From NCBI GenBank assembly GCA_001789965.1, contig MGBA01000021.1, positions 28,507 through 92,506 of the forward strand: 64,000 nucleotides of DNA. The letters run 5' to 3'. A program made the translations under genes and the position numbers. This document shows positions 19,695-61,968 of this stretch, piece after piece. The DNA comes from Candidatus Roizmanbacteria bacterium RIFCSPLOWO2_02_FULL_40_13 (lineage in GTDB: Bacteria > Patescibacteriota > Microgenomatia > UBA1406 > GWC2-37-13). Under the pieces are notes generated by a model. It ran no database searches. It worked only from the letters and a program-made list of their open reading frames with translations, and was not told the DNA's origin. How positions within the stretch are numbered: the first letter of the stretch is position 1; the number at the start of each line of letters is the position of its first letter.

Positions 19695-21107
19695 TTAGTC
19701 TGAGGTGCCGACGAGATATACTGCCTGCCACGGTCGAAAGTTTGAGAAGAATGTTTTTTCAAAGTTAACATCGCCGGAGCCGGTTACTTTATAAGAAAAA
19801 TTTGCCTTACCACCCCACGCTGCAAAATCCACCTGTTTGGTTACTCCTTTTTTAAGAGTCGGATCATCCTGATATTTTGGATCAGGAGGAGGGGAGACAT
19901 CTGTCAGAGTTCCCGGTGATATGTATATCTGTCTTCCATCCTTTTTTCCATAAAATCTAAAATAGACATTGCCTGTCCCATGATCAACCTCTGTCTGAAT
20001 CAATAAATATCCAGGCGTGTTGTTTTTTATTTTCAGATCAACTGTTGGTCCATAAACAGTTGCGTCAAAACCAGGCTTAGAGTCGTTTTCATAATATCCC
20101 ACCCTATATGCATGAGCCGTCCTCTCGATTATCGGGAGCCCTGCCTGAAGAGCTGCGCGGAAAAGTGTAGTAGAGACCTGACATACGCCTCCTCCATCAC
20201 CTAAAACAGTTTTTCCTCCCTTGATTATGTACGCAGGTTTATAGCCTGTGGTTGAAGAAATATCTCCGACAATATCATTAAACGAAACAACTCCGTCCTT
20301 GGGCACAAGTATTCCGTTAAATCTTGAAGTTGCGAGTGTTAAGTTATGAACGCGCTCCGGAATAGAACCGGCATAATTCGATTTTCCTTCAGAGACCAAT
20401 TCTTCAATTCCGAATTGATTTGATTTGGCGAGTGTTATCTGAGGTTTGATAATTTGATCCGCAAGAACAACGGTTTCATTCTTCGGATTTTTCTTCCAGA
20501 AAATGATTTTATTTTCCATGTCAGAAATTAATTTTTCAGAATTAATTTTTGCCCCCTCTTCTTCTATCCTAAAATTAACTACCCTGTCATTTTCAAACTT
20601 AAAGAGTGCGTCTTTTGCCGGTTTGTTATATTTATCTTCCTGCAACGAAATAAAGTCGGAAAGAGAATTTTTGTCATACGTAAGCTGGGTCGCAAAATCA
20701 AAACGGTCACGATTAAATAATGTTTTTAATTTTTGAGAAACTCGAGAAGGAAGATGGCTTACTCGACCAATAAGATATGCACGTTCTACAACATCATCAA
20801 CATTTCTGTGTACTCCCATTTGTTTGCCCGAAACTGTGGCAATCGGAGTGTCCTTATAAAGAACGGTAATGGTGAGATTGTCCAAATCTCCTGCCCGTTT
20901 CGAAAAAAGCATCGCTGCCTCTTTTTTCGTCTTTCGACCGACAGAAACATGATCAATGTAAACGTTAGGGTAGATGTGATTCTGAAGACGTTTTTCCTCC
21001 CGGATGATGTAGCCCGTAATCGAGACACCGATTACCAAGAGGAGCGCTATAAGAAAGATTAAACTATACAAAACAACAACCTCTTTCGTTCTTGTTTTTG
21101 GTATCAT
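19695..21107 (-). CDS. VanW-family membrane-anchored protein
   Basis: VanW core GGGVCQVSTTLFRAALQAGLPIIERTAHAYRVGYY behind an N-terminal TM segment. I prefer the ATG at 21107; the track start at 21149 is a TTG. Confidence 0.85.
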   Translation of the reverse strand: MIPKTRTKEVVVLYSLIFLIALLLVIGVSITGYIIREEKRLQNHIYPNVYIDHVSVGRKTKKEAAMLFSKRAGDLDNLTITVLYKDTPIATVSGKQMGVHRNVDDVVERAYLIGRVSHLPSRVSQKLKTLFNRDRFDFATQLTYDKNSLSDFISLQEDKYNKPAKDALFKFENDRVVNFRIEEEGAKINSEKLISDMENKIIFWKKNPKNETVVLADQIIKPQITLAKSNQFGIEELVSEGKSNYAGSIPERVHNLTLATSRFNGILVPKDGVVSFNDIVGDISSTTGYKPAYIIKGGKTVLGDGGGVCQVSTTLFRAALQAGLPIIERTAHAYRVGYYENDSKPGFDATVYGPTVDLKIKNNTPGYLLIQTEVDHGTGNVYFRFYGKKDGRQIYISPGTLTDVSPPPDPKYQDDPTLKKGVTKQVDFAAWGGKANFSYKVTGSGDVNFEKTFFSNFRPWQAVYLVGTSD

Positions 21108-21113
21108 AAACGT

Positions 21114-22688
21114 ATGGATGATGATAAAACAAACTTGAACGAAAATCAATCAAAACGCCAAGAAGAAGAGAAGAACGATAAGGGGCCGACTCCCATTTTC
21201 CAAGCGGTTCCCGAGGAACATTCAAATCCACTGCCAGAGTCTCTGGATCAAAAAGAAGAGGAGCATTATAACCCTCTGCCGGAAGGTCCGGAGTTACAGC
21301 CAGAAGAGATATCTCCTGAACTGACTGCACCCCCAAACTTACAGCCTCCTGACGAACCGCCTCCACCTGATTCTTCAGAGCCAAGTTCTTTTGAACAAAA
21401 TCGTTCAAAATACCTGATTATAGGAGCCGCAGCTGTTTTCTTTGTCTTCATCCTTATTCTCATATTGCGTCTTGTTTTCGGAGGAGGAAAAAAGGAAGTA
21501 ATATCGCTTACATACTGGGGACTATGGGATGATGCTGAAGTCATGCAGCCCCTCATAGATCAGTATCAAAAAAGTCATGAAAACGTAAAAATTCAATATC
21601 AAAAAATGACCCCTGACGACTACAAAGACAAACTCCTTGCTAGAAGTAAAAACAGCCAGGGACCGGATATTTTCCGCTTTCACAATACATGGGTACCTGA
21701 GATAAAGGAGGTCCTCACGGCGATGCCTGAATCGGTTATGAGCAATGGTGAATATGAGAGGACTTTTTACAAGATTCACCAAAAAGATTTGAAGGTCGAC
21801 GAGCGTTATTATGGGATACCGCTTATGGTTGATGGATTGGTTCTGGTTTACAACGAAAATCTCTTTAAAAAAGCAGGAATAACCAATGCGCCGACCAGTT
21901 GGGAAGACATTTTGGACTATGTAGGTAAATTAACGGTAAAGACAAAGGACAATCAGATCGTTACATCCGGAATAGCCTTAGGAACGACAAACAACATCGA
22001 GCACTTTTCCGATGTTTTCGGACTATTTCTCGCCCAAAACGGTGGAAACATAAAAAATCTTGACAGCGGTGAGGCTGTCGGGGCGCTTCAAAGTTATAGA
22101 AAGTTTGCAGAGCCTCCTGATAGCTTTTGGGATGAGAATATGCCTAATTCGACATCCGCTTTCGTACAGGAAAAGGTCGCAATGATCATTGTTCCTTCTT
22201 GGGAAATACTAACGATTCAAAAAGCAAATCCTGATCTGGCATTAAAAACCGTACCCGTACCTCTCTTGCCAGGTTCAAAACCGGTATCCATAGCTACCTA
22301 TTGGGTAGAAGGCGTCTCCAAGTTCAGTACTCATCAGACAGAATCATGGGAGTTTCTCCGTTTTCTTTCAGAACGAGACCAGATGGCTAAGTTATACGAA
22401 CTACAGGCAAAAACGCGAAGATTCGGCGCACCGTATTCTCGGGTTGATTTAGCTTCAACTTTATCCCAAAATGAATATATAGGAGCCGTTATAAAGCAGG
22501 CAGAAGCAGATTCGTACGTTTCGATGCCGGTAATTGCAAGAACGTATGACAATGGGCTCAATGATGACATCATCAAGTATATTGAAAATGCAATTAACGC
22601 GGCGTCGCAAGGTGTATCCTACCAAGAGGCCATGTCGACCGCAAAGCAGGGCGTTGATCAAGTTTTCTCCCGCTATCAAATCGAGTAG
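21114..22688 (+). CDS. TM-anchored ABC-type extracellular solute-binding protein (family 1, sugar type) with an acidic/Pro-rich N-terminal tail
   Basis: 524-aa ORF. Residues ~1-105 are low complexity with a repeated EEH-x-NPLPE. A TM segment (YLIIGAAAVFFVFILILILRLVF) follows, then an SBP fold (ISLTYWGLWDD, GPDIFRFHNTWVPE, YGIPLMVDGLVLVYN). Confidence 0.8.
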   Translation: MDDDKTNLNENQSKRQEEEKNDKGPTPIFQAVPEEHSNPLPESLDQKEEEHYNPLPEGPELQPEEISPELTAPPNLQPPDEPPPPDSSEPSSFEQNRSKYLIIGAAAVFFVFILILILRLVFGGGKKEVISLTYWGLWDDAEVMQPLIDQYQKSHENVKIQYQKMTPDDYKDKLLARSKNSQGPDIFRFHNTWVPEIKEVLTAMPESVMSNGEYERTFYKIHQKDLKVDERYYGIPLMVDGLVLVYNENLFKKAGITNAPTSWEDILDYVGKLTVKTKDNQIVTSGIALGTTNNIEHFSDVFGLFLAQNGGNIKNLDSGEAVGALQSYRKFAEPPDSFWDENMPNSTSAFVQEKVAMIIVPSWEILTIQKANPDLALKTVPVPLLPGSKPVSIATYWVEGVSKFSTHQTESWEFLRFLSERDQMAKLYELQAKTRRFGAPYSRVDLASTLSQNEYIGAVIKQAEADSYVSMPVIARTYDNGLNDDIIKYIENAINAASQGVSYQEAMSTAKQGVDQVFSRYQIE

Positions 22689-22697
22689 AGATTTATC

Positions 22698-24776
22698 ATG
22701 AAATTTTCTTTAGACTTTTTAAAAAAGCAGCCTTCTGACGAGAGCTATCTCGGATTATTCTTAAAAGAAAAAAAAGGAGAGGTTATTTTTCTTGAAAAAA
22801 AGGGAAATAGACTAGACGTAATTACTAAAGAGCATTTTTCATATACGAACGGATGGGATAACATCGTCGAAGATGTTGATGATGTTTTATACAAGCTTGA
22901 GACCCACACTAAAAAATCTCCGGAGAAAGCGATTTTTTTTATTTACTCTCATCTCGTGGACGAATCGTCACGTGAAATAAAAGGACCGTTTCTTCACAAA
23001 ATAAAGGATCTGTCTAAAAAGCTCGAACTTAAACCGATGGGATACATTGAAAGTCATGAAGGAGTTGCGGGAATTCTGCAAGACAGGGAAGGAGTTGGGT
23101 TGACCGCTACATTGATTGAGCTCGACAGTTCATTTCTTTCTGTTTTTATCTACAAGAGCGGAAAAGTAATTTTTAAAGAGACCGTGCAGAGAACCCATGA
23201 GATCATTGATGATCTTATTCCGGTGTTTGAAAAAGTAAAACATATCGCAATGATGCCTACAAGAGTGATTCTGTATGACTCCCATAATACGAGCATGGAA
23301 GCTGAGAAAATACTCAGCCACCGATGGAGCGCAGAACTCTTCGTACAGCTCCCCAAAGTAGAGGTGGTGTCAGAGCAAGACATACTTGAAGGTCTTATAA
23401 ATCTTTTTTCGACTCAGGTTGCGCCTAGTGCAAAAGCAGAAACTTCTATCCCGGAAAAAAAAGAGACGCTTGGTTTTGTGATCGGTGGAGACGTTGGACC
23501 TAAAAAAGAAGTGGAGAAGGAACCAGAGCAGGAAGAGTTTGCAAACGAGCTTGAGTCAAAGCCAAATCCCTTCCAAGGCGTCCTCGCATCAATAATTGTT
23601 TTTTCAAAGAAAATAGCAAATGAAATAAAAAGCAAAAGCGGACGTTTAAAAACCGTACCGATTCCGGTGCTTGCCATAATTGGCGTTTGTTTGATTGCCC
23701 TCGCAGTGTTTTTGATGGAGTTTTATTTTCATAAGGCAGAGTTGACCATTTTTTTTCCAGCCAAAAAAATCGAAAAGTCTTTGACGCTTACCGGATCTAC
23801 CTCAAAAGAAGCGCAAGTTCTCGCATTAAATTCCGCAACTACTGCGACTCAGTTTACCGACTCTAAAAATGCAACAGGCAAAAAAGAGATCGGGGAAAAA
23901 GCAAAGGGAACCGTTACGATCTATAACAGTAGTCTTACGGAAGGAAAAAGTTTTTCTAAGGGGACTACGCTTACCTCTCCGAATTCAATAGAGTTAGTAT
24001 TAAATTCTGACGTGAAAGTCGCCTCAGCTTCAGGCGACGCCGCATCTGTGAAGCCAAGCACTACAAAGGTTGAGGTAACCGCGGCTGCAATCGGTCCAGA
24101 GGGCAATTTGGCATCTGATACTAAGTTTAGTGTTGAGGGAGAGTCGGCAGTGGTTATTGCAAAAAACGATTCAGCTCTTACCGGAGGAGTAAAGCGCTCG
24201 GTTCAAACCATTGCAAAACAAGACATAGACGACCTGAGAAAAAGAGCAATGGATAAAGCGAAAGACTTTAACAATAAAGAGGTCGAGTCAAAACTACAGG
24301 ACGATGTAAAAATTCTGAAAGACCTGAGTGAGATTCAGCTTAAAAATCCACAATTCTCTGGAGAGGTTGGAGAAGAAGCGGGTACTGTTTCCCTCAAGTC
24401 AAACATTACCATTACCTATTTCAGCTATAAACAAAATAACCTTCTCGATCTCATACAAGAAGACTTAAAAAAAGATATTAAAGCAGGAGAGGAAATACCA
24501 AAAGACTCACTTGAGTATTCAATTAAGAAAATTACAGAAAATAAAACCGATTACGACATTCTCGTAAGCGTTCAGGCAAAGGAGGTTAGGAAAATTGCCA
24601 AGGATGAGCTGGAAAATATAGCAACCGGTAAGAAAGACAAGGACATAGAAAAAATCCTTAAAGATAAATATGGAGCATCAGGACTTGAATTACAGGTGTC
24701 TGATCCATTACCATTATTTAAGAACAGGTTGCCGTTTTTCAAAAAAAATATTAACTTGAAAATTTCATATTTGTAA
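22698..24776 (+). CDS. Bitopic membrane protein: degenerate actin-like (FtsA/PilM-like) cytoplasmic domain, TM segment, Baseplate_J-like ectodomain. Function unknown.
   Basis: 692-aa ORF. The N-terminal ~245 aa show an ASKHA-like strand/helix pattern (YLGLFLKEKKGEV, LKPMGYIESHEGVAGIL, ATLIELDSSFLSVFIYKSGKV) without Gly-rich phosphate loops. TM segment is VPIPVLAIIGVCLIALAVFLMEFYF. The ectodomain motifs KAKGTVTIYNSS and VEVTAAAIGPEGN resemble Baseplate_J/gp47-family proteins from memory, with no search run. Confidence 0.45.
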   Translation: MKFSLDFLKKQPSDESYLGLFLKEKKGEVIFLEKKGNRLDVITKEHFSYTNGWDNIVEDVDDVLYKLETHTKKSPEKAIFFIYSHLVDESSREIKGPFLHKIKDLSKKLELKPMGYIESHEGVAGILQDREGVGLTATLIELDSSFLSVFIYKSGKVIFKETVQRTHEIIDDLIPVFEKVKHIAMMPTRVILYDSHNTSMEAEKILSHRWSAELFVQLPKVEVVSEQDILEGLINLFSTQVAPSAKAETSIPEKKETLGFVIGGDVGPKKEVEKEPEQEEFANELESKPNPFQGVLASIIVFSKKIANEIKSKSGRLKTVPIPVLAIIGVCLIALAVFLMEFYFHKAELTIFFPAKKIEKSLTLTGSTSKEAQVLALNSATTATQFTDSKNATGKKEIGEKAKGTVTIYNSSLTEGKSFSKGTTLTSPNSIELVLNSDVKVASASGDAASVKPSTTKVEVTAAAIGPEGNLASDTKFSVEGESAVVIAKNDSALTGGVKRSVQTIAKQDIDDLRKRAMDKAKDFNNKEVESKLQDDVKILKDLSEIQLKNPQFSGEVGEEAGTVSLKSNITITYFSYKQNNLLDLIQEDLKKDIKAGEEIPKDSLEYSIKKITENKTDYDILVSVQAKEVRKIAKDELENIATGKKDKDIEKILKDKYGASGLELQVSDPLPLFKNRLPFFKKNINLKISYL

Positions 24777-24777
24777 G

Positions 24778-25536
24778 ATGTCGTTATACGTATACGTCAG
24801 AGAGAAACAATCGGTTAAAAAAAAGGTAGTAAACTATGCTTCGTACGCGACTCTAACATTGGGATCGCTACTTCTGTTTTGGGCATTTTACCCCGTTATT
24901 TCGTTTGAGATCTATTCAAGACTGTTTATTCAGAGGCAGACCGCAACACCCGTACCTTCACCTCTTACCTCATCCCTCTCGATAGCAGACACCGTTATAG
25001 GCTCAAATAACGGCATTTTTTCCAATAATCTCCGGGATTTTACCCAGGCCAGCCTGTGGTTTCCTACATCGAAAAATCAGGCGCCTACGAGTACATTTAA
25101 GGCTAAAGAATACTCACTTTCTATCCCTAAGCTAAATATCGATAGAGCGCGGGTAATCGTGGGTGGAGAAGACCTCACAAAAGGTCTGGTACACTACCTT
25201 CCGGTAACACCTCCGGGGGAGCACGGAAACGTAGTTATTTTTGGTCATTCGACCTTACCCCAGCTTTATAATACAAAAGACTACAAGACTATTTTTACCT
25301 ATCTTCCTTCCTTGGAAAAAGGGGATAAGGTTCTGGTAAATAGCGATGGTGGAACTCTCGAATACCAAGTCTACGAGATGTTTGTCGTGAAACCGGATCA
25401 GATCTCTGTTTTGGAGCAAAAATTTGACGCATCCTACCTGACATTGGTAACCTGTGTTCCACCCGGGACTTACTGGAACAGACTCGTTGTGCGGGCGAAA
25501 TTATCTAAACTACCCGACCAGCTTTCATTGAAATAA
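24778..25536 (+). CDS. Sortase-family transpeptidase
   Basis: 252-aa ORF with an N-terminal TM segment and the catalytic triad context VIFGHS (His), LTLVTC (Cys) and NRLVVRA (Arg). Starts 1 nt after the preceding gene. Confidence 0.85.
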   Translation: MSLYVYVREKQSVKKKVVNYASYATLTLGSLLLFWAFYPVISFEIYSRLFIQRQTATPVPSPLTSSLSIADTVIGSNNGIFSNNLRDFTQASLWFPTSKNQAPTSTFKAKEYSLSIPKLNIDRARVIVGGEDLTKGLVHYLPVTPPGEHGNVVIFGHSTLPQLYNTKDYKTIFTYLPSLEKGDKVLVNSDGGTLEYQVYEMFVVKPDQISVLEQKFDASYLTLVTCVPPGTYWNRLVVRAKLSKLPDQLSLK

Positions 25537-25562
25537 CCTATAATATCTGCTAAAATTACGGG

Positions 25563-28010
25563 ATGCCCAAGAAGGAGGAAAAACCTCTCGTTTTGTCTGT
25601 TATTGAAAAAGCACTCTACAGCAGTCTTTTTGCCTTAGTTAACTTCTTTATTTTTATAGGAGAGGTTACTACAAATGCATTTTTCGGGCCATTTCGTTTT
25701 CTCTCATTTCTTTCCCAGACGTTTCTTAATCTTCTCGTACTCATAGGACAGATCATAGAAAAAGTATATTCGTTTACACAAAATTTTTTTGTCAATACTC
25801 TTCCCGCATATATAAAAAGCGTATCTAAAATATCTCTTCCAAAGCCTCAGTTTAAGATGCCTAAGGTTTCTATAAAAAAACCAAAATTTAAACTTCCCAA
25901 GTTTACGTTACCAAGAATCAAACTCCGTTTTAAAATACCACACGTGGCTCTTCCTAAATTTCCGACCATTCAGAGAACACTAGAGCCTAAACAACTTAAA
26001 ATTACAAAAGAAAGAAAGGCAAAATTACTAAAAGAGAAAAAGGAACCTGCGCCGCGTGTCCGTTATTTTATTGTAGGATTTGCTACCGCATCGATCATAA
26101 TATTGATTCAGCAGTCATACGTATTTGTAGAATCTTTACCTTCACCTAAAAATATCGGAAAAGTAAATTACTCACTCACCACTCATATTTTTGATAGAAA
26201 CGGGAGACTCTTGTATGAAGTATACCGCGATCAAAACAGAACTCCTATCAAGTTAAAAGATCTTCCACCGTACGTATGGCAAGCATCGGTCGCAATAGAA
26301 GATAAAGATTTTTTCAGACACAATGGAGTCTCTCTTATAGGAGGGATAGTAAGAGCTGCGAAAGAAACATTTTTTACAAAAAATCTTCAAGGAGGGTCAA
26401 CTATTACCCAACAGCTTGTTAAGTCAGCTCTTCTTTCACCAGAACGAACCATAGAAAGAAAATTGCGAGAAATCGTTCTTGCACTTTGGGCAGAAAGACT
26501 TTATACCAAGCAAAGAATTCTAGAGATGTATTTAAATCAAGTTCCATACGGAGGTTCCTCCTATGGTATAGAAGAAGCATCAAAAACGTACTTTACCAAA
26601 TCGGCAAAAGACTTAACTATCTCAGAAGCAGCGCTCCTTGCAGGGTTGCCACAGGCACCTTCAATCTATTCACCGTTTACAAATCCACAATTTGCACAGG
26701 TACGACGAGATGATGTTCTTAAAAAAATGTATGAACAAAGATATATCACCGAGCAACAATACATGAAAGCAAAAAAAAACCCGCTTATTGTAGCTGCGCC
26801 AAAGACTAACATCAAAGCACCTCACTTTGTCTTTTATGTAAAAGGAGAACTTGAACGCCTCTTCGGAATACGTACTGTAGAAGAAGGAGGACTGAGAGTT
26901 CATTCCAGCTTAGATCTTAGTCTTCAGGAAAAAATTCAGGAAATTCTCGCAGATGAACTGGCAAAAATCAAAGGTTTAAACGTCAGCAATGGAGCAGTGC
27001 TGGTGACCAAGCCTTCGACTGGAGAGATTCTTGCGATGGTGGGGTCGGTTGACTATTTCGCAGCCCCTTCAGGCGCTTTCAATGTCACCACGGCCCTCAG
27101 GCAGCCGGGATCATCGATAAAACCGCTTATGTATTCGCTTGCACTATCCAGGGACTTTACTGCGGCTTCGATTTTGGATGATAGTCCCGTTACATTTGCG
27201 CTCCCCGGAGAAACATATAAGCCGGTGAATTATGACGGCAAATTTCATGGTAGGTTGCCGCTTCGGTACGCACTTGCCAATTCTTACAACATTCCCGCAG
27301 TACGAACGCTCAATGCGGTAGGTGTAGACAACTTCGTTAATCATGCAAGAAGCATGGGAATCTCTACGTGGTATGATCCTTCACGGTTTGGTCTATCCTT
27401 GACTTTGGGAGGGGGAGAGGTAAAGATGACCGACATGGCAAAGGCATTTGGAGTATTTGCTAATTTGGGAAACAAAGTAGAAGAGACTCCGGTACTCTGG
27501 GTACAAAATTATTCGGACGAGACGATATATGAAAGAAAACCTGAATCTCAAAAAGTTCTCAGTCCGGGAGTGGGTTACATAATCTCAGACATTTTGTCCG
27601 ACAATGCCGCGCGGCAGCAGGCATTTGGTGCGCGTTCAACTCTTGAAATACCGGGATACAAGGTTGCGGTGAAAACCGGAACTACGGATAGTAAAAAAGA
27701 CAACTGGACGATAGGTTATACGCCAGAATACATGGTAGTTGTGTGGGTTGGAAATAATGATAATACGCCTATGAATCCAGCGCTTACCTCTGGTATCACC
27801 GGAGCAGCGCCTATCTGGAGCAAGGTCATGACCTATCTTTTGACCAATTACAGTAATAAAAACTCATGGTTTAATAAGCCTGAGGATGTGGTCGAGAAGA
27901 GTTGTTATGGAGGACGAACAGAAGTATTTTTAAAAGGAACTGAGAATGTTTATTGCTCCACGCTACCCGTACAAAGACCTTCGGTTTCTCCAACACCGCA
28001 GCCAAACTAA
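25563..28010 (+). CDS. Class A penicillin-binding protein (PBP1A: GT51 transglycosylase plus transpeptidase) with a long N-terminal extension
   Basis: 815-aa ORF. GT51 motifs AIEDKDFFRHNG, GGSTITQQLVK and RKLREI. Transpeptidase motifs SSIKP, SYN and KTGTT. Confidence 0.92.
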   Translation: MPKKEEKPLVLSVIEKALYSSLFALVNFFIFIGEVTTNAFFGPFRFLSFLSQTFLNLLVLIGQIIEKVYSFTQNFFVNTLPAYIKSVSKISLPKPQFKMPKVSIKKPKFKLPKFTLPRIKLRFKIPHVALPKFPTIQRTLEPKQLKITKERKAKLLKEKKEPAPRVRYFIVGFATASIIILIQQSYVFVESLPSPKNIGKVNYSLTTHIFDRNGRLLYEVYRDQNRTPIKLKDLPPYVWQASVAIEDKDFFRHNGVSLIGGIVRAAKETFFTKNLQGGSTITQQLVKSALLSPERTIERKLREIVLALWAERLYTKQRILEMYLNQVPYGGSSYGIEEASKTYFTKSAKDLTISEAALLAGLPQAPSIYSPFTNPQFAQVRRDDVLKKMYEQRYITEQQYMKAKKNPLIVAAPKTNIKAPHFVFYVKGELERLFGIRTVEEGGLRVHSSLDLSLQEKIQEILADELAKIKGLNVSNGAVLVTKPSTGEILAMVGSVDYFAAPSGAFNVTTALRQPGSSIKPLMYSLALSRDFTAASILDDSPVTFALPGETYKPVNYDGKFHGRLPLRYALANSYNIPAVRTLNAVGVDNFVNHARSMGISTWYDPSRFGLSLTLGGGEVKMTDMAKAFGVFANLGNKVEETPVLWVQNYSDETIYERKPESQKVLSPGVGYIISDILSDNAARQQAFGARSTLEIPGYKVAVKTGTTDSKKDNWTIGYTPEYMVVVWVGNNDNTPMNPALTSGITGAAPIWSKVMTYLLTNYSNKNSWFNKPEDVVEKSCYGGRTEVFLKGTENVYCSTLPVQRPSVSPTPQPN

Positions 28011-41579: not shown

Positions 41580-42008
41580 ATGAAAAAAGAAGTCGGAATT
41601 GCAATTTTTTTTGGAGTGCTTTTGGGTTTGATCGTTGCAGTGGTTATCATCTCACGAATCAGACTGCTCGAAAATCAAAAAGTAAAGCTTCCTTCCAATG
41701 TGCAAATCTCTCCAGCAGTTAAAAATCTAAATTCTCAAGTTCAAACTCTTGAGGTTACCGAACCCAAAGATCAGGCTGTTGTCTCTAAAAACAGTGTAAA
41801 GGTTAAAGGAAAAACCGTCAAAGGCTCGCTTGTTATAATTCAAACGCCGATTAAAGATATTGTGGTAAACAGTAAGGAAGAATCGTTTTCCGCAGATGTT
41901 CCGCTTGCACTTGGAGAAAACATTATCACGATCGCTTCTTATCCAAAAGGCAGTCAACAAAGATCTCAGGAAAAAGTAGTAAAAGTTTATTATTTAGATG
42001 AACAATGA
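41580..42008 (+). CDS. TM-anchored protein with a single Ig-like extracellular domain
   Basis: 142-aa ORF. N-terminal TM segment, then LEVTEPKDQAVVSKNSVKVKGKT...LALGENIITIASY, a bacterial Ig-like pattern. Confidence 0.5.
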   Translation: MKKEVGIAIFFGVLLGLIVAVVIISRIRLLENQKVKLPSNVQISPAVKNLNSQVQTLEVTEPKDQAVVSKNSVKVKGKTVKGSLVIIQTPIKDIVVNSKEESFSADVPLALGENIITIASYPKGSQQRSQEKVVKVYYLDEQ

Positions 42009-47786: not shown

Positions 47787-48458
47787 ATGAAATACATTAT
47801 AGCGAATTGGAAAGCTCATAAAACTCTGGAGGAAGCGTCAGCTTGGGTGGACTCAGTAAATAAACAAATTTCTCAAACTCCAGACGTACAGCGGAAACTG
47901 GAAGATGACGAATTGATAATTCTAATTGCTGCGCCATTCCCCTTTCTGGTTCCACTTTCTCAGAAGATCTCGCAAAAAAATCTAGCTGTTGCCGCTCAAG
48001 ACGTTTCTGTTTATGGCGAGGGAGCATATACCGGCGAAGTTACTGCAAAAATGCTCAAGGGAGTCACGACCCATGTTTTAATCGGACACAGCGAACGAAA
48101 GGATTATTTCCACGAGACTGACGAGGTGGTGTTAAAAAAATCAGAACAGGTACTGTCACAAGGACTTTCGCCCATCTTCTGTATTCAAAACGAATCCAAT
48201 AAAATACCCGAGGGAGCAAACATTATCGCCTATGACCCAAAAGAAGCAATTGGTACTGGAAAAAATGTTCCGGGAGAAGAGACTGCAACATTCAGAAAAA
48301 AATTAAATCTTTTTCCGGATGCGGTATTTCTCTATGGCGGTAGCGTTAACCCAGAAAGTATTGATGAGTATCTATCACATCCTGAGATAAATGGTTTTCT
48401 GGTGGGCGGTTCATCTCTTGATCCTGAGGAGTTTTTCGAACTGGTGAAAAAACTATGA
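47787..48458 (+). CDS. tpiA: Triosephosphate isomerase (short, with Asp at the catalytic Glu position)
   Basis: IANWKAHK (catalytic Lys), IGHSERK (His), AYDPKEAIGTG (loop 6) and YGGSV. I prefer the ATG at 47787; the track start at 47748 is a TTG overlapping the helicase start. Confidence 0.85.
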   Translation: MKYIIANWKAHKTLEEASAWVDSVNKQISQTPDVQRKLEDDELIILIAAPFPFLVPLSQKISQKNLAVAAQDVSVYGEGAYTGEVTAKMLKGVTTHVLIGHSERKDYFHETDEVVLKKSEQVLSQGLSPIFCIQNESNKIPEGANIIAYDPKEAIGTGKNVPGEETATFRKKLNLFPDAVFLYGGSVNPESIDEYLSHPEINGFLVGGSSLDPEEFFELVKKL

Positions 48459-49501
48459 AGGGTCCAGTATCTTCAAAAAAAGTAAAAATCTGGATCATCG
48501 GAATCGCAATTTTACTTTTCGTACTAATTTTCTTTGGCCCTTATTATCTTTTCCTCACAAGGGATCTTAAAATTTCTCCATTTCAAACTCTTTTTCTCTC
48601 AGGTGGTCTAAGAAAAGTAAACGATCAGGTAAATGTGCTCATTTTGGGAATTCCCGGTGGAAATCATGACGGTCCTTTGTTATCCGATTCTATGATTGTT
48701 CTCAACTATGACTTTAATAAAAGGAGAGCCGTGACCATAGGAATGCCCAGAGATGTGTGGAGCGCGACCTTGCAGGATCGTTTAAATTCAGCATACGCCT
48801 ACGGAGAAGCGAAAAAACCCGGTGGCGGACTCACTCTTGCAAAGGCAGAAGTCGGCGCGGTCGTAGGAATGCCGATTCAGTATGTGGTTGTAATGAATTT
48901 TAGCGAATTTAAAGATATTATTGATTACTTCGGAGGTATAGACATCGAAGTAAAGAATTCATTTACCGATAAAAAATTTCCTCTTGAAGGTAAGGAGAGC
49001 GACGAATGTAATGGTGATGCGGAGTATCGTTGTAGATATGAAACGGTTCACTTCACCCAAGGAAAACAACATATGGATGGTAATACAGCACTGAAATTTG
49101 TGAGATCGCGAAATGCAATCGGAAAAGAAGGAAGTGATTTTGCACGTAGTCTCCGTCAGCAAGCAGTTACCGAAGAAATGAAAGGAAAAATAGTAAAAAC
49201 AGCCTTTACCTTTAACCTCGGAAAAATAAAAGAAATGTATTCAATTCTTGACAAATCTGTTCAAAGAGACATTAGCAATCAACAGGCAGCCGCTCTCGGC
49301 AAGAAATTGATATTTGATGGGAAGTTTTATGAAAAAAACTTTGGACTTCCGCGGGAGTTATTTACTATACCCGACGGAAGTGATTATGAGGGGAAATACG
49401 TGCTCATACCAGCTGTAAGTTTCCAGAATGTCTACGATTACACCCATTGTCTTTTATCAAAAGAAGATGAAGTGAAATGCAGTTCTTTAGTAAAGAATTG
49501 A
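48455..49501 (+). CDS. LytR-CpsA-Psr (LCP) family cell-wall glycopolymer transferase
   Basis: 348-aa ORF. N-terminal TM segment and LCP motifs LILGIPGG...LSDSMIVLNYD...GMPRDVW, ALKFVRSR. Confidence 0.85.
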   Translation: MKGPVSSKKVKIWIIGIAILLFVLIFFGPYYLFLTRDLKISPFQTLFLSGGLRKVNDQVNVLILGIPGGNHDGPLLSDSMIVLNYDFNKRRAVTIGMPRDVWSATLQDRLNSAYAYGEAKKPGGGLTLAKAEVGAVVGMPIQYVVVMNFSEFKDIIDYFGGIDIEVKNSFTDKKFPLEGKESDECNGDAEYRCRYETVHFTQGKQHMDGNTALKFVRSRNAIGKEGSDFARSLRQQAVTEEMKGKIVKTAFTFNLGKIKEMYSILDKSVQRDISNQQAAALGKKLIFDGKFYEKNFGLPRELFTIPDGSDYEGKYVLIPAVSFQNVYDYTHCLLSKEDEVKCSSLVKN

Positions 49502-50197
49502 GAAGAAAACCGTTAAAGCTCCTAGAAGTAAGATAAATAACTGAGGTTGAACTGTTGCCGCAACCGGCAAAGTCTGAGGAGTTGTAGGTGTAGGACTACT
49601 CACAGAGGCTACCGCAGCTTTTGTAGGAGTAAGTGTCGCGCTTGCGGATGTTGAAATTAACGTTACGGTTGGTGTACCCGTGGTCGTCTCAGGTCCGCCT
49701 ACGGGAGGAGTTGTGGGCGTGATACTTTCTATAGGTACGCCCGTAACAGTAGGTGTTACATTTTCAGCAAGCACCACATCTGTTGGAGTTGGCGTGACGA
49801 AAAGAGCTTCTTGAGTAATTTCCGGAGATGGGCCTTCAGTTACATTCACATCTGCACGTGTTCTTATCGGAGGAGGAACTTCTTCGGGAGTTTGAGTGCT
49901 TTGAATTGTGACAAATAAAATGACGCCAAGAAAAGCAATAAGGGTAACAGCTATCATCACGGCAAGATTCTTATGCTTTTTTAGCGTTTTCGGTTTTTCA
50001 TTTTCAGAACTGGGTGCTGGAGTATAGTTATGAGCTTGTACTACGCGTGAGGGATTAAACGTCGGAATTTTGGGTTTTTCCTTTTTCTTTTTTTCCTTTT
50101 GAAATAAGTAAAATTCATATCCCAAAACTCCAAGAGTTAAAATAAAGAAAAAAATACTGACTTTATTGACTGAACCTAACAACTCAAGTACATCCAT
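49487..50197 (-). CDS. Thr/Pro-rich surface protein with N- and C-terminal TM segments
   Basis: 236-aa ORF. Two N-terminal TM segments flank a Lys-rich loop. A ~100-aa mucin-like T/P/V region follows, then a C-terminal LPVAATVQPQ and a hydrophobic tail. Confidence 0.5.
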   Translation of the reverse strand: MDVLELLGSVNKVSIFFFILTLGVLGYEFYLFQKEKKKKEKPKIPTFNPSRVVQAHNYTPAPSSENEKPKTLKKHKNLAVMIAVTLIAFLGVILFVTIQSTQTPEEVPPPIRTRADVNVTEGPSPEITQEALFVTPTPTDVVLAENVTPTVTGVPIESITPTTPPVGGPETTTGTPTVTLISTSASATLTPTKAAVASVSSPTPTTPQTLPVAATVQPQLFILLLGALTVFFSILY

Positions 50198-50200
50198 ACC

Positions 50201-51454
50201 TTACAACGCAAATACTAAAAGCCACATTCCAATAGTAACAAGACTCAGTGATGAGAAAACAAGTAGCGAAGTATTTACTCCGCTCACAGGAGGCGTAGGA
50301 GTAGTATTAGCAATAATTGTTGGTGAGGGAGACGCTGTGGGAATAGCTGCACCCGTTGCTTCTCCAAGGACCTGTTCTCCGCTTTTTGCAATTGAAAAGT
50401 TCCGCGTAAGAAGGGTTTCTTTTCCATTTGTGTCCGGCGTGCGGACAGTAAGAGTGTGTTTGCCGGCAGAAAGAGGACTCGCCAGACTTATACTCCAAAA
50501 TCCATCACCACCTATTTTTGTTTTTACTGTTGCGTCCTTTTTTGTATCGGTGACCACTGCTGAGAGATTGCTGTTTGGGATACCGGTTCCCCGTATAAGA
50601 GGGGTTGAACCCGGAACAATTGCGTTTTCCCGCGGAAAAAGAATCTCGATTTTTACTCTTTTATCATCGGTTACAGATAAAACATTTTCTTTTTTATTCA
50701 GATTGTAATTTTTTCCTAATATTATAGTTTCAGGTAAGGGACTCAGATTTGAGATGTTGGTTTGGACGCTGGAGCGGTTTCCATTATCCGAAAAAAGTTC
50801 AATTTTAATCACCTCATCTTTAGAAAGGACCTTGAGTGCTCCTGTTTTTTTATCAATTATATAGTTAAGAGGAATCAGCCACTCGCCGGAAGCTTTTGAA
50901 AGAGCTGATAGTAAATACGCATTGTTTGCCGACAAAAGAACGATAACATTATCAAGAGGCGCTCCGTTTGAATCCGTCACCTTGCCATATGCAGGTTTCA
51001 GATTGCTCACCCTTGAAGTTCGTGGCAAAGTGGATAAGGAGAAAGCTCTTCCCTCCGGATTTGCAATAAGCTCCTTATTATTAACAAGCTTAAAAAAATA
51101 CTCGTTTGAAGGAGTTAGATTCTTCAATATTACATAATGAGTAAGCCTTGCCGTTTTACTATCCTGAAAATCGCGCTCATCAAGCGCTATTTGGTTGAGC
51201 TTATTTTCTTGAGATCCGTATGCAATCCAACCGGGTTCCTTTTGCTCTGTTTGCCAAAATATGGCGACTTGGCTCGAAGATAGATTGGTTACTTCGACGT
51301 TTTTTATTACTTTTTTTGTCGCTCTTGAAGAAGGAGGTTCGCTTCTAAAGAAAACAATACTTACAAATACCACAACGACTATCACCACTGCAAAAGACAA
51401 CCATGTGGGAATCTGAACTTCTTTTCGAGAATATATATCGGTGAAGGAGGTCAT
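50201..51454 (-). CDS. Surface protein with FN3-like and Ig-like domains, anchored at both termini
   Basis: 417-aa ORF. N-terminal TM, an FN3-like segment (VEVTNLSSSQVAIFWQTEQKEPGWIAYG...THYVILKNLTPSNEYFFK), an Ig-like segment (PLIRGTGIPNSNLSAVV...GFWSISLASPLSAGKHTLTVRT), and a C-terminal hydrophobic tail. Confidence 0.5.
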   Translation of the reverse strand: MTSFTDIYSRKEVQIPTWLSFAVVIVVVVFVSIVFFRSEPPSSRATKKVIKNVEVTNLSSSQVAIFWQTEQKEPGWIAYGSQENKLNQIALDERDFQDSKTARLTHYVILKNLTPSNEYFFKLVNNKELIANPEGRAFSLSTLPRTSRVSNLKPAYGKVTDSNGAPLDNVIVLLSANNAYLLSALSKASGEWLIPLNYIIDKKTGALKVLSKDEVIKIELFSDNGNRSSVQTNISNLSPLPETIILGKNYNLNKKENVLSVTDDKRVKIEILFPRENAIVPGSTPLIRGTGIPNSNLSAVVTDTKKDATVKTKIGGDGFWSISLASPLSAGKHTLTVRTPDTNGKETLLTRNFSIAKSGEQVLGEATGAAIPTASPSPTIIANTTPTPPVSGVNTSLLVFSSLSLVTIGMWLLVFAL

Positions 51455-51455
51455 C

Positions 51456-51641
51456 TTAGTGATTTTTTGACTTAAGAACTTCTACCATCTCTTTGCTTAT
51501 CGCTGTTTCTTTTATAAGAGGAAGACTCACATTGTCTTTTTCATATTCCCGCGCCGCCGCATGATAAATATCTGCCATAAGCCATGCGATTACCGTACAA
51601 AATACTCCGATTGAGATCAGCAAAAATTCCTTTCTATTCAT
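51456..51641 (-). CDS. Small single-pass membrane protein
   Basis: 61-aa ORF with one TM segment (FLLISIGVFCTVIAWLMADIY). ATGA overlap with the upstream gene and a 1-nt gap to the downstream gene. Confidence 0.5.
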   Translation of the reverse strand: MNRKEFLLISIGVFCTVIAWLMADIYHAAAREYEKDNVSLPLIKETAISKEMVEVLKSKNH

Positions 51642-52225
51642 AAGTAATATCCTTCAATTTCAAGTTGAAATTTAAGACCGGCACTTCCAGTCGCTTCGCT
51701 TTTTTGTCTTGTGATTTCAAACTTTCTAATTTTTTTAAGACGTCTTTGATTATAAACTTCCTCTATTGATTTTAATAAATTTTCAAAAGAAGATGTTGCC
51801 TCAATGTTAAAGGTAGTGGATTGTAATTTTCCCTTCGTCTTATCTACGAGATTAACTTCTCCTGAGTTAAATTTTTCGATTGTCACTGAGTTGGTCGCAG
51901 TCGCATTCTCAACGTCTCCAATCAACTCGTTCATATTAGGGCGTCGAGGGATAGCTTCTCCAAAAAGATGGAGATCGTCTCTATATGTTTCAAAAGAAGA
52001 TTGTATATCGACTATTTTGGAGATAACCGATTCGTACCGTGAATTAAGTGCGAAAAGCTGCTCTTCCTCTTGTTTAAGAGAAAAGGCCGTGACAAGTGAA
52101 GGGCGGATTGCAAAAAAAACAAAGATTGAAAATACCAGAAAGAACAACGATGCAAAAGTATAATCTTTTGCCTTTTTTGAAGAGATTTGTTTTAAGAGTT
52201 GTTTTAACAGATTTTGTTTATCCAT
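51638..52225 (-). CDS. PilO-like type IV pilus assembly protein
   Basis: 195-aa ORF with the PilO architecture: a short cytoplasmic N-terminus, TM segment (FASLFFLVFSIFVFFAI), coiled coil, then an alpha/beta C-terminal domain. It directly follows the PilN-like gene. Confidence 0.5.
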   Translation of the reverse strand: MDKQNLLKQLLKQISSKKAKDYTFASLFFLVFSIFVFFAIRPSLVTAFSLKQEEEQLFALNSRYESVISKIVDIQSSFETYRDDLHLFGEAIPRRPNMNELIGDVENATATNSVTIEKFNSGEVNLVDKTKGKLQSTTFNIEATSSFENLLKSIEEVYNQRRLKKIRKFEITRQKSEATGSAGLKFQLEIEGYYL

Positions 52226-52226
52226 A

Positions 52227-52769
52227 TTATTTTTTTGCTTTTGAAACTTTTATTCCGGTATCAAGCTCGATAGTAAATGAATATCCACTTTCCCCACGTT
52301 TCACATTGACAAGCGCAACAGAAGGAAATTTATTCTCTTTTTTCAATCTGTTATAAAAAAGCTGGAGGTGTTGAGGGTTGAGGGCAACGCCGGTGAGTGT
52401 CAATTTTCCCTCGTCAAATACCATATGGTCAAGAACAAGAGCCTCGGGAAATATAGACAATATATATCTAACAGAAGAAAGCAGGTTGTCTTGGTCCTTC
52501 AGGATTTGTTTTGATTCCGCTGCCTGGTCGTTTATCTTTTTTGCTTCTGCAAGAATTGGTTGAACGACCTCTATGATCGCTCTTTTTTGTCCGATTGAAT
52601 CTCGAAGATCAATTATTGTCTCATCTACACTGAAACGAAAGAAGAAAACCACGAGAACAATGAGCTGTGTAAAAACCAGGATATAACGTAAATAATGGAG
52701 AAAGAAATAAACAATCTTGTCGACTATATTTGGCTGCTTTTTCCCTGCAAGATTGATGTTATATTTCAT
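52227..52769 (-). CDS. PilN-like type IV pilus assembly protein
   Basis: 180-aa ORF. N-terminal YNINL (the PilN INLLP-type PilM-binding motif), a TM segment, a coiled coil, and a C-terminal LTLTGVALNPQHLQLFYNRLKK pattern. Confidence 0.55.
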   Translation of the reverse strand: MKYNINLAGKKQPNIVDKIVYFFLHYLRYILVFTQLIVLVVFFFRFSVDETIIDLRDSIGQKRAIIEVVQPILAEAKKINDQAAESKQILKDQDNLLSSVRYILSIFPEALVLDHMVFDEGKLTLTGVALNPQHLQLFYNRLKKENKFPSVALVNVKRGESGYSFTIELDTGIKVSKAKK

Positions 52770-55385: not shown

Positions 55386-57218
55386 TTAGTCTGTAATGAC
55401 CACGTCTTTGTCAAGAAGTTGATTATATACAGTTTTTCCTTTGATTAGAGCCTTGAGAGTGAGAGTGTCTACGCTTGGCTGTTTCTGCACCAGAAGTTCG
55501 TAATTATTCGCTGAAATCCCATCAGGAAGGGTATAAGTGACCTGAACGGTAGCTTTTCCAAGAGGATTGACTCTCAGGAATCCCTCGAACACTGTTTTTC
55601 CGAGCTCATCATAGGTTTTAACAGGAGTTTCTGAGCCGATAAATTCTACGAGTTTTGAACCTTTGGGGACATATATACGAATCCAGTTTCTCAGCTGGGC
55701 GTTAAGACAGAGTCCTCCTCGCTCAAGATTGCAGTCTGAGTGGGGATATGGATTTCTCCAGTCGATCAGAACCTCTCTTTCTACAGTGTTTCCCTTAAAT
55801 GTAGTCTTAGACTCAACTGTTTCATTTACAAAAAGGTTGGATTTTGCGCCGGCAAAGTTCACGTTATTAATGTGAAGATAATCACCATTAAATTGTCTTA
55901 TTCTTCCCCCATAATTAAGCTTTTCAATGGACTCTTGAAGGGTTTTATCAGGGAAATGGACAAGAATATGTTTGGTGTCCAGATTATGGATAGAGTTTTC
56001 AATAAATGGTCCCCAGTAGCGTGAGGGAGAAAACCCAAGGACTTTCAAAAGGAGTGCCTGCATGAGTTGTCCAAGAATACCTTTTCGGTCTTCTTTTACA
56101 TAATTTACCGGCCTATCGACAATGTCAAAGAGAGTGTAGATAACCTGCGGACAGTCACATCGTTTATCTTCTTTTGCTGAAAAAACTACTCCACCGGCTT
56201 CCGTGTCACCGAAGATTGTAAGCATATCGACCAGTACTTTGGAATCAAGCGTGATGATTCCGTCATAGTCAACTTTTTTAGGACTCTTTTGATAGAGAGA
56301 ATTAAAAAGCTTTATAGACTCGACAAAGTCAGGAGACAGATTACTGTCTCTTATGACAAACTGGGACACGCCCTTATGGTAGGCAAGAATTTCACGGGGG
56401 GCACGTGGATGAGACGACAAAGAATTATCAAGTTGATAGATATCGTCAGAAGACTCTTTCTTGATTCTTCCTTTGTCGATATTAAATACCGCATATGAAG
56501 TTAGAAATCCACCTGTTGCTCTTCGTTCCTTATCATTTTGAAAAAGAATCAAATATGTTTTTGGCTCGTCTTTACCTAAGATATCCGGAAGCTGCTTAAG
56601 AAGCGGTTTTGCATCCACAAAAAGAGTAGTAACTCCAAGCGCCGAGTTTCTCAGATTCGCCACTTTATCCTGAGCTTTAAATCCGAGGAAATTTTTTGGA
56701 TATCGGTGAGGGTTGATTTTGTTAAGTCTGATTTCCGCCTGCTCAAAATTTTTCGATATTGGATCAATTCTATCAACGATTTTATCAAGGGTGAGGACCG
56801 CGGTTTGTAGTCTATCCTCTGCTGATTTCTCCACAAAAGACGCTTCTCCTTTTTTAAATCCAATAAGATCTGCATAAGGACTGATTGCTACGACAGACTC
56901 TTTTGCTGCGCGGATCATGTAGTTTCCTGCCTCAAGCCCGTTTTTCATATCGCCTACGTATGGAATGAATGCGAAAAGATAAAGAGGTTTTGCCTCGCGC
57001 TCTAAAGCAGCGTATTTTACAGAAAAGTCATCAAGGTCTTTTTTTACCAGATCAAGATCATTTTTCGCAAAATCCTTTTTAAGTTGTTGGGCAGATTTTT
57101 TAAGAGCGCCACCGCGGACGTTTATCAGTTTGAAAGGTTTATATACGAAAAAGTAGAGCAGGATAAAAACGATAAATCCGACGACGTATGGGTTTCGCTT
57201 TTTTCTGTTTTTTCTCAT
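55386..57218 (-). CDS. DUF4012 domain-containing membrane protein
   Basis: N-terminal TM segment and the DUF4012-type motif LILFQNDKERRATGGFLTSYAVF. I prefer the ATG at 57218 (MRKNRKK). The track start at 57329 would overlap the upstream gene by 67 nt. Confidence 0.7.
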   Translation of the reverse strand: MRKNRKKRNPYVVGFIVFILLYFFVYKPFKLINVRGGALKKSAQQLKKDFAKNDLDLVKKDLDDFSVKYAALEREAKPLYLFAFIPYVGDMKNGLEAGNYMIRAAKESVVAISPYADLIGFKKGEASFVEKSAEDRLQTAVLTLDKIVDRIDPISKNFEQAEIRLNKINPHRYPKNFLGFKAQDKVANLRNSALGVTTLFVDAKPLLKQLPDILGKDEPKTYLILFQNDKERRATGGFLTSYAVFNIDKGRIKKESSDDIYQLDNSLSSHPRAPREILAYHKGVSQFVIRDSNLSPDFVESIKLFNSLYQKSPKKVDYDGIITLDSKVLVDMLTIFGDTEAGGVVFSAKEDKRCDCPQVIYTLFDIVDRPVNYVKEDRKGILGQLMQALLLKVLGFSPSRYWGPFIENSIHNLDTKHILVHFPDKTLQESIEKLNYGGRIRQFNGDYLHINNVNFAGAKSNLFVNETVESKTTFKGNTVEREVLIDWRNPYPHSDCNLERGGLCLNAQLRNWIRIYVPKGSKLVEFIGSETPVKTYDELGKTVFEGFLRVNPLGKATVQVTYTLPDGISANNYELLVQKQPSVDTLTLKALIKGKTVYNQLLDKDVVITD

Positions 57219-57262
57219 AATTCCATTTGGTTCTATCGTGCTTCTTTGTCTGTTTTGAGATC

Positions 57263-57925
57263 TCAGACTGCGCCTTTGCCAGTTAGCATTACCCAGGGAG
57301 TTCGAAAAATTATTTCTAAATCTTTCCATAGAGACATTGCATCTATATATTTTGCATCAAGAGCTATTCGTTTGTCAAAATTAATTTCCGATCTTCCGGA
57401 TACCTGCCATAATCCGGTAATTCCTGGTTTAACCGACAAAACTTTTGCAACTAATCTTTTTGTTTGCGGATATACCAGTTGTTGTCCCTCGAGCTCATCT
57501 TTGTAATAAGCCCTTGGTCCAACCAAACTCATTTCTCCCCGTAAAACATTTACAATTTGCGGAATTTCGTCAACCGAGTGTTTTCTAATAAACCTTCCAA
57601 CACTTGTTATCCTCGGGTCTTTTTTTAATTTGTAATTGCCTCGTTTGTATTCCTGATACAAACTTTTAAAACGTGGGTCGATGCGCAACATCTGATGAGC
57701 ATCGATAATCATGGACCGAAACTTGAACATTTTGAAACTTTCTCTTCCCTGTCCTACCCGTTCGGGAACATCGGCAAATATCGGTCCCTTAGAGTTTAAT
57801 TTTATCGCAATGGCGGCAATTAAGCAAATAGGAGAGAAGATCACAACAAGGATTACGGAAAGAATAATATCCAGAAGTCTTTTTAAGTATCGTTCGTACG
57901 CTTTTCCTGTAAAAGGATTTCCCAT
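57263..57925 (-). CDS. Small monotopic phosphoglycosyl transferase (Bac_transf / WbaP C-terminal type)
   Basis: 220-aa ORF with LKRLLDIILSVILVVIFSPI, KGPIF, FKMFKFRSM and DEIPQIVNVLRGEMSLVGPRA. Confidence 0.9.
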   Translation of the reverse strand: MGNPFTGKAYERYLKRLLDIILSVILVVIFSPICLIAAIAIKLNSKGPIFADVPERVGQGRESFKMFKFRSMIIDAHQMLRIDPRFKSLYQEYKRGNYKLKKDPRITSVGRFIRKHSVDEIPQIVNVLRGEMSLVGPRAYYKDELEGQQLVYPQTKRLVAKVLSVKPGITGLWQVSGRSEINFDKRIALDAKYIDAMSLWKDLEIIFRTPWVMLTGKGAV

Positions 57926-57937
57926 AAACTGTTTTTC

Positions 57938-59026: not shown

Positions 59027-59063
59027 AAGATTAGCTTAAAAGTTTAAAAAGAAAAAAGCAAAA

Positions 59064-60170: not shown

Positions 60171-60174
60171 ACTA

Positions 60175-61932: not shown

Positions 61933-61944
61933 AAGCGTAGCTAT

Positions 61945-61953: not shown

Positions 61954-61968
61954 GAAGGAAACAAAAGC

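Follow-up and report, generated by a model that had tools for sequence, protein, structure and literature searches.

What is the role of a 692-amino-acid (aa) membrane protein that joins an actin-like domain inside the cell to a phage baseplate-like domain outside it, and that is encoded between a gene for a solute-binding protein and those for a sortase and a peptidoglycan synthase? The question is raised by a stretch of 64,000 nucleotides (nt) from Candidatus Roizmanbacteria bacterium RIFCSPLOWO2_02_FULL_40_13 (contig MGBA01000021.1, positions 28,507 to 92,506 of the forward strand), here called the window, in which this protein, hereafter the target, is encoded at 22698-24776. Within the candidate phyla radiation (CPR), Microgenomates are a very large group that has not been cultivated, and to our knowledge almost nothing is known of how their cells organise the envelope. 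Our analysis suggests, with a probability of roughly 0.45, that the target is a bitopic inner-membrane scaffold for sortase-mediated surface assembly, forming with its sortase a two-gene module conserved across Microgenomates. The genes concerned, in positions of the window, are the following.

21114-22688, + strand: solute-binding protein (SBP) gene, from the open reading frame (ORF) list; SBP_bac_1 3e-30 and SBP_bac_8 (Pfam)
22698-24776, + strand: target, 692-aa bitopic membrane protein (ORF list)
24778-25536, + strand: sortase gene (PF04203, E 9e-27)
25563-28010, + strand: gene for a class A penicillin-binding protein (PBP) of the PBP1A family (Transgly 5e-60, Transpeptidase 4e-21, TIGR02074)
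19695-21149, - strand: PG_binding_4 plus VanW gene (Pfam: VanW 3e-39, PG_binding_4 1e-13)

The genes for SBP, target, sortase and PBP1A stand head to tail with intergenic gaps of 9, 1 and 26 nt, and the ORF coordinates agree exactly with the co-directional order and spacing reported in a first-pass annotation of the window, which had been made from the sequence alone.

Architecture of the target protein

The same annotation had divided the target into an ASKHA-like N-terminal domain, one transmembrane helix and a Baseplate_J-like ectodomain. AlphaFold2 models of residues 1-245 and 345-692, each searched separately with Foldseek, uphold both domain calls and with them the three-part layout, and the helix, placed here at 23667-23729, matches the earlier call of 23649-23725. 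We regard this structural description, whose elements are listed below, as solid.

22698-23432, + strand: cytoplasmic minimal ASKHA (actin-like) fold, aa 1-245 (AlphaFold2, Foldseek)
23466-23495, + strand: disordered-linker motif T-L-G259-F260-V-I-G-G-D265-V (alignment of 86 diverse members)
23667-23729, + strand: single transmembrane helix, aa ~324-344, N-in/C-out (hydrophobic stretch after K/R residues)
23730-24773, + strand: extracellular Baseplate_J/gp47-like module, aa 345-692 (AlphaFold2, Foldseek against PDB and BFVD)
23880-24212, + strand: beta-barrel core, aa ~395-505 (Pfam, family profile, invariant columns)

The two parts were predicted from alignments of 38 N-terminal domains (A1) and 33 ectodomains (A2), respectively. 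The model of aa 1-245 (pLDDT 89.5, pTM 0.84) contains, according to DSSP, two tandem beta-beta-beta-alpha-beta-alpha-beta-alpha (RNase-H-like) halves and no inserted subdomain. Foldseek returned 589 matches to it in PDB at E<=1e-3, and all 50 of those listed are ASKHA proteins, including Ppx/GppA (4e-9), PilM, EutJ, BT_3980, FtsA, sugar kinases and MreB, with TM-scores of 0.40-0.56, of which the highest (0.55-0.56) belong to FtsA. Sequence searches of PDB, with the whole protein or with a profile of the N-terminal domain, gave nothing significant for this domain, and no Pfam family matches it in the target or in any of the 38 members.

All three nucleotide-binding loops of the superfamily have been lost. 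The phosphate-1 position is occupied by a hairpin, Y-L-G19-L-F-L-K23-E24-K-K-G, without the Asp-x-Gly of the usual DxG[ST]xxxK; K23 of this hairpin is invariant in the first of the two clades described below, and the second has A-I-E-I-S, which is degenerate too. At the phosphate-2 position a second hairpin, I-E141-L-D143-S-S-F, stands instead of DxGGG[ST], and the adenosine-motif position reads V-I-L-Y193-D-S-H, without GG. Fold search and loop residues agree in this way with the earlier suggestion of an ASKHA-like fold that lacks Gly-rich phosphate loops and is probably no ATPase. The loss of the loops argues against nucleotide binding or hydrolysis by the domain, which, to judge from its sequence, is most likely a non-catalytic binding or oligomerisation module.

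The linker that follows is charged, varies in length between members and is modelled with low pLDDT, and within it lies a motif with variable flanks (consensus h-M-G-F-V-I-G-x-D), of which G259 and F260 are present in 85/86 diverse family members. A basic juxtamembrane stretch, with K/R residues ahead of the hydrophobic segment, leads from the linker to the transmembrane helix, and at the outer end of the helix there is a conserved E-Y-F-F-H345-K-A, with H345 found in 83 of the 86 members.

The likeness of the ectodomain to Baseplate_J/gp47 proteins, first put forward on the strength of two sequence motifs, is borne out by Foldseek matches to baseplate wedge proteins, by Pfam matches across the family and by a profile match to a diffocin protein. 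The ectodomain model (pLDDT 90.9) comprises a beta sheet, a beta barrel, a long helix and two alpha/beta domains, the arrangement of these being less certain (pTM 0.65). Most invariant ectodomain residues fall in the barrel (G399, G404, G466, N470, G497), with D509 directly after it. The target carries both motifs, KAKGTVTIYNSS at aa 401-412 and VEVTAAAIGPEGN at aa 458-470, inside the stretch that is covered by sub-threshold matches to Baseplate_J and to the GlxA barrel. The target itself matches Pfam Baseplate_J (PF04865) over aa 400-498 with E 0.01 and 15.6 bits against a gathering cut-off of 21.1; the same family is matched at E<=0.1 by 26/33 members (best 5e-10) and the GlxA barrel by 12/33, and the distant members P0255 and P0237 exceed the Baseplate_J gathering score. 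A profile of the family matches diffocin TRI-2 (CD1371; E 3e-4), and the stretch matched covers exactly KAKGTVTIYNSS and VEVTAAAIGPEGN.

In the structural comparison, the top PDB match of the ectodomain was the beta barrel of GlxA from Streptomyces lividans (E 8e-7), a local match of ~145 columns, and the next were the baseplate wedge chains of phi812, XM1, A-1(L), Mu and diffocin (probability 1.0, ~345 columns). A search of BFVD gave 30 matches at E<=1e-3, of which the named ones are almost all baseplate J or baseplate wedge proteins, and the barrel superimposes on Mu gp47 with a root mean square deviation of ~5.5 Å over ~115 columns. The barrel (aa ~395-505) is firmly homologous to Baseplate_J; the flanking domains may also correspond to the Baseplate_J wedge, as judged from Foldseek alignments with TM-scores of 0.22-0.25.

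That no other phage genes lie nearby, as stated at first pass, agrees with our scans, since the Pfam-annotated neighbours of the target in the window are ordinary cellular genes (including GT2, GT4, hexapeptide transferase, aminotransferase, SerRS and Ham1) and the target has no PHROGs match. No sheath, tube, gp25/W, gp7/gpI or other tail gene was found around it in the window and related loci. A prophage remnant is rejected on account of the absence of phage neighbours and the conserved housekeeping position of the gene.

The target belongs to a large family of proteins of its own kind. A first homologue search gave 297 matches, of which the 120 listed are practically all full length, and more than 240 homologues are both full length and collinear with the target. 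An exhaustive search with the profile of the N-terminal domain gave 1326 clusters at 50% identity, of which 1102 reach E<=1e-10 and 210 reach E<=1e-30. Nearly all of the top 150 are 630-770 aa long, the shorter ones probably being fragments. The members checked in detail are collinear with the target over essentially the whole length, down to 27% identity and in two clades, by which a fusion artefact of two genes, for which the first-pass annotation had left room, is excluded and the ORF established as a genuine single gene. Source annotations call these proteins 'hypothetical protein' and occasionally 'baseplate J/gp47 family protein', and a full-text literature search found no paper on the family, in line with the earlier view that no function had been assigned to it. 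One source names a clade-2 member (P0273) 'translation elongation factor EF-1beta', which is a misannotation.

The sortase and the gene neighbourhood in two clades

The neighbourhood was compared in two clades. Clade 1 consists of 75 loci obtained by scanning one genome per GTDB species with the N-domain alignment, labelled Roizmanbacteria, Microgenomates and Woesebacteria, plus records with generic titles; neighbours were mapped by tblastn of the window genes, and counts refer to loci with enough flank. The order VanW / SBP / target / sortase / PBP1A is nearly invariant.

Clade 1, 65/66 loci: sortase directly 3' of target
Clade 1, 59/59 loci: PBP1A after sortase
Clade 1, 69/70 loci (70/70 allowing an overlap): SBP directly 5' of target
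Clade 1, 62/62 loci: VanW gene divergent from SBP gene

Median intergenic gaps are 7, 3 and 27 nt, the cluster comes after the ribosomal operon, and the same order is found in loci whose N-terminal domain is only 24-30% identical to that of the target. In the one locus that breaks the adjacency of target and sortase, three large beta-propeller/dockerin genes separate the target from the sortase-PBP pair. In that Roizmanbacteria locus (L002, 10056-17393, on the same contig as L023) the three inserted genes encode secreted beta-propeller proteins that end in dockerin and are without LPXTG-type C-termini. Many third-party metagenome-assembled genome records (L005, L007, L011 and others) carry a Patescibacteria-type locus under the title 'uncultured Gammaproteobacteria bacterium', a label that is evidently generic or wrong.

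Clade 2 was reached through a search with one Woesebacteria-type member, which returned 15 proteins, by way of one of these, P0272. Its target proteins are 714-818 aa long, and hidden Markov models built from A1 and A2 both match them strongly. In 7/7 loci examined the order is AlaRS / target / sortase, within a context of FtsK, a RodZ-like HTH_25 protein, small genes, AlaRS, target, sortase and variable downstream genes (RuvX, YceG/MltG, NUDIX, nucleoside phosphorylase), and there is no SBP, VanW or PBP near the target in these seven loci. The clade-2 sortase is 35-44% identical to that of the window over its full length. The target-sortase pair of these loci (L080-L086) sits inside a widespread alaS-ruvX-mltG(YceG) block. 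The RodZ-like HTH_25 protein also carries a Glucodextran_B domain in some clade-2 loci, and the window holds a lone Glucodextran_B ORF of 142 aa at 41580-42008.

The first-pass annotation had described the target as encoded together with sortase and PBP1A, and in clade 1 this arrangement holds for both; the adjacency of target and sortase is kept in clade 2 as well, whereas the link to PBP1A and SBP is absent there. As the sortase alone is kept in both contexts, the constant partner of the target is the sortase, not PBP1A. The module is the target plus the sortase, and the wall-synthase association is added in one clade.

The sortase is membrane-anchored and has a PF04203 domain with the catalytic His (FGHST), Cys (TLVTC, within TLxTC) and Arg (NRLVVRA), and these motifs are conserved in 71 orthologues. 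It falls below every NCBIfam class cut-off, the best score being that for class C (68 bits against 160), and its nearest solved structures include several class C sortases. Its cytoplasmic N-terminus holds a second conserved element.

24784-24801, + strand: cytoplasmic N-terminal sortase peptide L-Y-V-Y-V-R (comparison of 71 sortases)

The protein starts MSLYVYVREK and contains the peptide MSLYVYVREKQSVKKK; the family consensus is h-x-x-Y-h-K. Within the first 30 aa a Y-x-K/R is present in 69/71 sortases, covering both clades, and the other two have near variants. A survey found one sortase family to be near ubiquitous in Microgenomates and patchy in other CPR groups (PMC6744442), which fits a target-sortase module whose loci are mostly labelled Roizmanbacteria, Microgenomates and Woesebacteria.

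A proposed sortase scaffold and its alternatives

In the scaffold that we propose, the actin-like domain would hold the sortase from inside the cell, plausibly through the Y-x-K peptide at the sortase N-terminus. The suggestion is one of analogy: GspL, BfpC and PilM provide a precedent for actin-like cytoplasmic domains as adaptors of membrane platforms, PilM binding the N-terminus of PilN and the cytoplasmic domain of GspL binding GspE (PMC4471445), and from this docking comes the idea that a pseudo-actin domain holds the tail of the sortase. The baseplate-like ectodomain would serve as an extracellular platform beside the catalytic domain of the sortase, and the two proteins together would fix the site at which surface proteins are transferred to lipid II or the wall, with the G-F motif of the linker possibly acting as an auto-inhibitory or oligomerising strand. 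In the Roizmanbacteria/Woesebacteria clade the scaffold may also couple sorting to wall synthesis, since a class A PBP and an anchored SBP seem to share its operon and a VanW gene adjoins. Sortases attach their substrates to lipid II, and the products are then polymerised and cross-linked into peptidoglycan. Because sortase products on lipid II need polymerising and cross-linking, an operon with a class A PBP is functionally coherent, and the VanW gene fits too.

Several points weigh against this proposal. That the actin-like domain touches the tail of the sortase is purely our inference. The window, the inserted genes of L002 and ~85 loci were searched for sortase substrates with an LPXTG-like motif ahead of a hydrophobic tail and basic residues, and no convincing one was found. 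The TM-scores of the N-terminal domain (0.40-0.56) are modest, and nucleotide binding through an atypical site may still occur as far as its sequence goes; for the ectodomain, whole-length TM-scores are only 0.22-0.25, and the match is firm for the beta barrel alone. Promoter and terminator scans gave sites at no more than chance frequency and so do not establish an operon. Because small CPR genomes generally keep their gene order, the fact that genes are neighbours within a single clade is weak evidence, and real weight attaches only to the comparison of the two clades.

The same observations were set against other explanations. One, the idea of the first-pass annotation, is a wall-synthesis organiser centred on PBP1A, in which the actin-like domain would guide the location or activity of the PBP and the VanW transpeptidase in the manner of FtsA/FtsN, MreB/RodZ or GpsB, and the sortase would be incidental. 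The clade-1 loci favour it, with PBP1A following in 59/59 and VanW upstream in 62/62, as does the partner enzyme itself (524 bits with TIGR02074, above its cut-off), in which ~170 extra N-terminal aa precede the transmembrane helix (window 25563-26100). This extension, conserved, unusual and cytoplasmic, combines a hydrophobic conserved FFIFIGE(I/A)T motif with basic KLP repeats (KPKFKLPKFTLPRIKLRFKIPHVALPKFP), recurs in most related loci and might serve for docking. VanW domains cross-link peptidoglycan, and the PG_binding_4 plus VanW architecture was shown to be a peptidoglycan L,D-transpeptidase in Clostridioides difficile (PMC11348318). The clade-2 loci, however, keep the sortase in 7/7 cases with no PBP, SBP or VanW gene adjoining the target, and in one clade-1 genome three inserted genes are tolerated ahead of the sortase-PBP pair, which makes an organiser of this kind unlikely.

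The remaining clade-1 partners and envelope genes of the window deserve a brief description. The SBP has an acidic, proline-rich cytoplasmic N-terminal tail of ~105 aa followed by a transmembrane helix, and no ABC permease or ATPase was found among the window ORFs scanned against Pfam; the SBP is an orphan, membrane-anchored protein. The VanW ORF as listed (TTG start at 21149) overlaps the start of the SBP gene on the opposite strand by 36 nt (21114-21149), and since VanW relatives are 465-470 aa long, the true start is probably a Met ~15 codons further in. Elsewhere in the window (48455-49501 and 55386-63884) there are genes for LCP (LytR_cpsA_psr), DUF4012, a Bac_transf sugar transferase, GT4, a nucleotidyl transferase and GlmS, a set that suggests a wall glycopolymer pathway.

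A second alternative sees the target as the foundation on which a surface fibre or attachment structure, polymerised by the sortase, would be assembled, its ectodomain forming a ring and a class C-like sortase building pilin-type subunits. Among the sortases of known structure nearest to this one, several are of class C (pilus), class C gives its best NCBIfam score, and Baseplate_J proteins are oligomerising wedge subunits in phage baseplates. Against this, no pilin-like or LPXTG-bearing gene occurs in any locus and the sortase reaches no class-specific NCBIfam cut-off, and we hold such a platform to be improbable.

Alternatively, the target could act on its own at the surface or in contact with a host, as a phage baseplate domain domesticated into an adhesin or receptor, its synteny with the sortase reflecting only a stable genomic backbone. 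The kinship of the ectodomain with phage wedge proteins would agree with this, as would the long syntenic blocks beside housekeeping genes in CPR genomes (clade 1 after the ribosomal operon, clade 2 in alaS-ruvX-mltG). Yet the target and the sortase have moved jointly into two unrelated neighbourhoods with gaps of still a few nt, and a purely extracellular role leaves the well-conserved 245-aa cytoplasmic domain unexplained, so the odds of this explanation are low. A bolder variant of our own scaffold proposal would make the target a domesticated baseplate wedge, with an ectodomain ring or hub wired to an oligomerising pseudo-actin, that recruits the sortase (in some lineages also the class A PBP) and builds or anchors a host-attachment structure; such an undescribed trans-envelope machine is a doubtful extension.

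The weakest alternative concerns two genes at the far side of the window.

52227-52769, - strand: PilN (window Pfam scan)
51638-52225, - strand: PilO (window Pfam scan)

These lie 27 kb from the target on the opposite strand, without an adjacent PilM, and the PilN starts MKYNINL. The first-pass annotation had wondered whether the target is the missing PilM-type partner of this pair, which would make it a GspL/PilM-PilN-type platform protein of a type IV filament. PilM structures are indeed among the best Foldseek matches of the N-terminal domain, and the topology of GspL is shared (PMC4471445), but the target lacks the 1C/SHS2 insertion that forms the PilN-binding groove of PilM (its domain has ~245 aa, PilM chains ~350 aa), neither the target nor the 38 members match the PilM or T2SS-L families of Pfam, the ectodomain is Baseplate_J-like as opposed to the ferredoxin-like PilN/GspL fold, none of ~80 loci shows pil genes close to the target (in the 11 loci read gene by gene there was no pil or gsp gene, and the clade-1 block is too tight to hold any), and another Microgenomates genome has a canonical PilM inside its type IV pilus locus (PMC7143001), all of which speaks against the suggestion and leaves it very improbable. 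After PilN/PilO (49487-52769, - strand) there are two further ORFs, one of 417 aa with Ig-like domains and one of 236 aa. Both end in a Thr/Pro-rich stretch and a hydrophobic C-terminal tail without basic residues, and these tails may be an unusual anchoring signal.

Relation to known systems and meaning for Microgenomates

The closest precedent in layout is GspL/EpsL, with which BfpC and PilM-PilN may be grouped: like the target, these systems have a bitopic design in which a docking domain of ~240 aa from the actin superfamily, inactive as an ATPase, is joined by one transmembrane helix to an outer domain (PMC4471445). The likeness is one of layout only. The target has two complete RNase-H-like halves without an SHS2/1C insertion, its ectodomain is Baseplate_J-like and GlxA-barrel-like where GspL has a ferredoxin-like periplasmic domain, and the neighbours are SBP/sortase/PBP or AlaRS/sortase, not GspE/GspM or pilus genes. 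FtsA (with FtsN and FtsZ) and MreB (with RodZ) are likewise actin folds that bind short cytoplasmic peptides of bitopic envelope proteins and position wall enzymes; the target differs from them in that its nucleotide loops are lost, it has neither a 1C domain nor a C-terminal amphipathic membrane helix, and it is itself transmembrane.

On the outer side, the ectodomain resembles Baseplate_J/gp47 wedge proteins in having the size of their small members (~350 aa), in aligning with them over ~345 Foldseek columns and in sharing the barrel signature G-x-x-A-x-G-x-V ... A-x-x-I-G-x-x-x-N ... G-G. T4 gp6 and TssF of the type VI secretion system are related to these wedge proteins. Unlike them, the target is anchored on the outside of the cytoplasmic membrane, continues into a cytoplasmic domain and is encoded outside tail gene clusters. 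It lies below the Pfam threshold, and with TM-scores of only 0.22-0.25 its domains may be arranged differently from theirs. GlxA of Streptomyces lividans (PF21110) is, like the target, a membrane-anchored extracellular envelope protein with the same small beta barrel, but its catalytic domain, the beta-propeller of a radical copper oxidase, has no counterpart in the target, so that the likeness is confined to the barrel. The target appears as a new variant among actin-fold transmembrane adaptors, one that does not belong with GspL, BfpC or PilM-PilN themselves and whose outer part is of the Baseplate_J fold family, outside any tail gene cluster.

With ~1,100 clusters at 50% identity, found in housekeeping neighbourhoods, the target family is among the widely conserved proteins of Microgenomates for which no function is known. 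The scaffold proposal makes a concrete, testable prediction for it, namely that the N-terminal Y-x-K peptide of the sortase docks on the actin-like domain. If the pairing is functional, no dedicated membrane partner of a sortase would have been proposed before the target; the actin fold would be seen in a new role, that of a pseudo-enzyme adaptor, and a phage baseplate module would have been recruited for cell-surface assembly.

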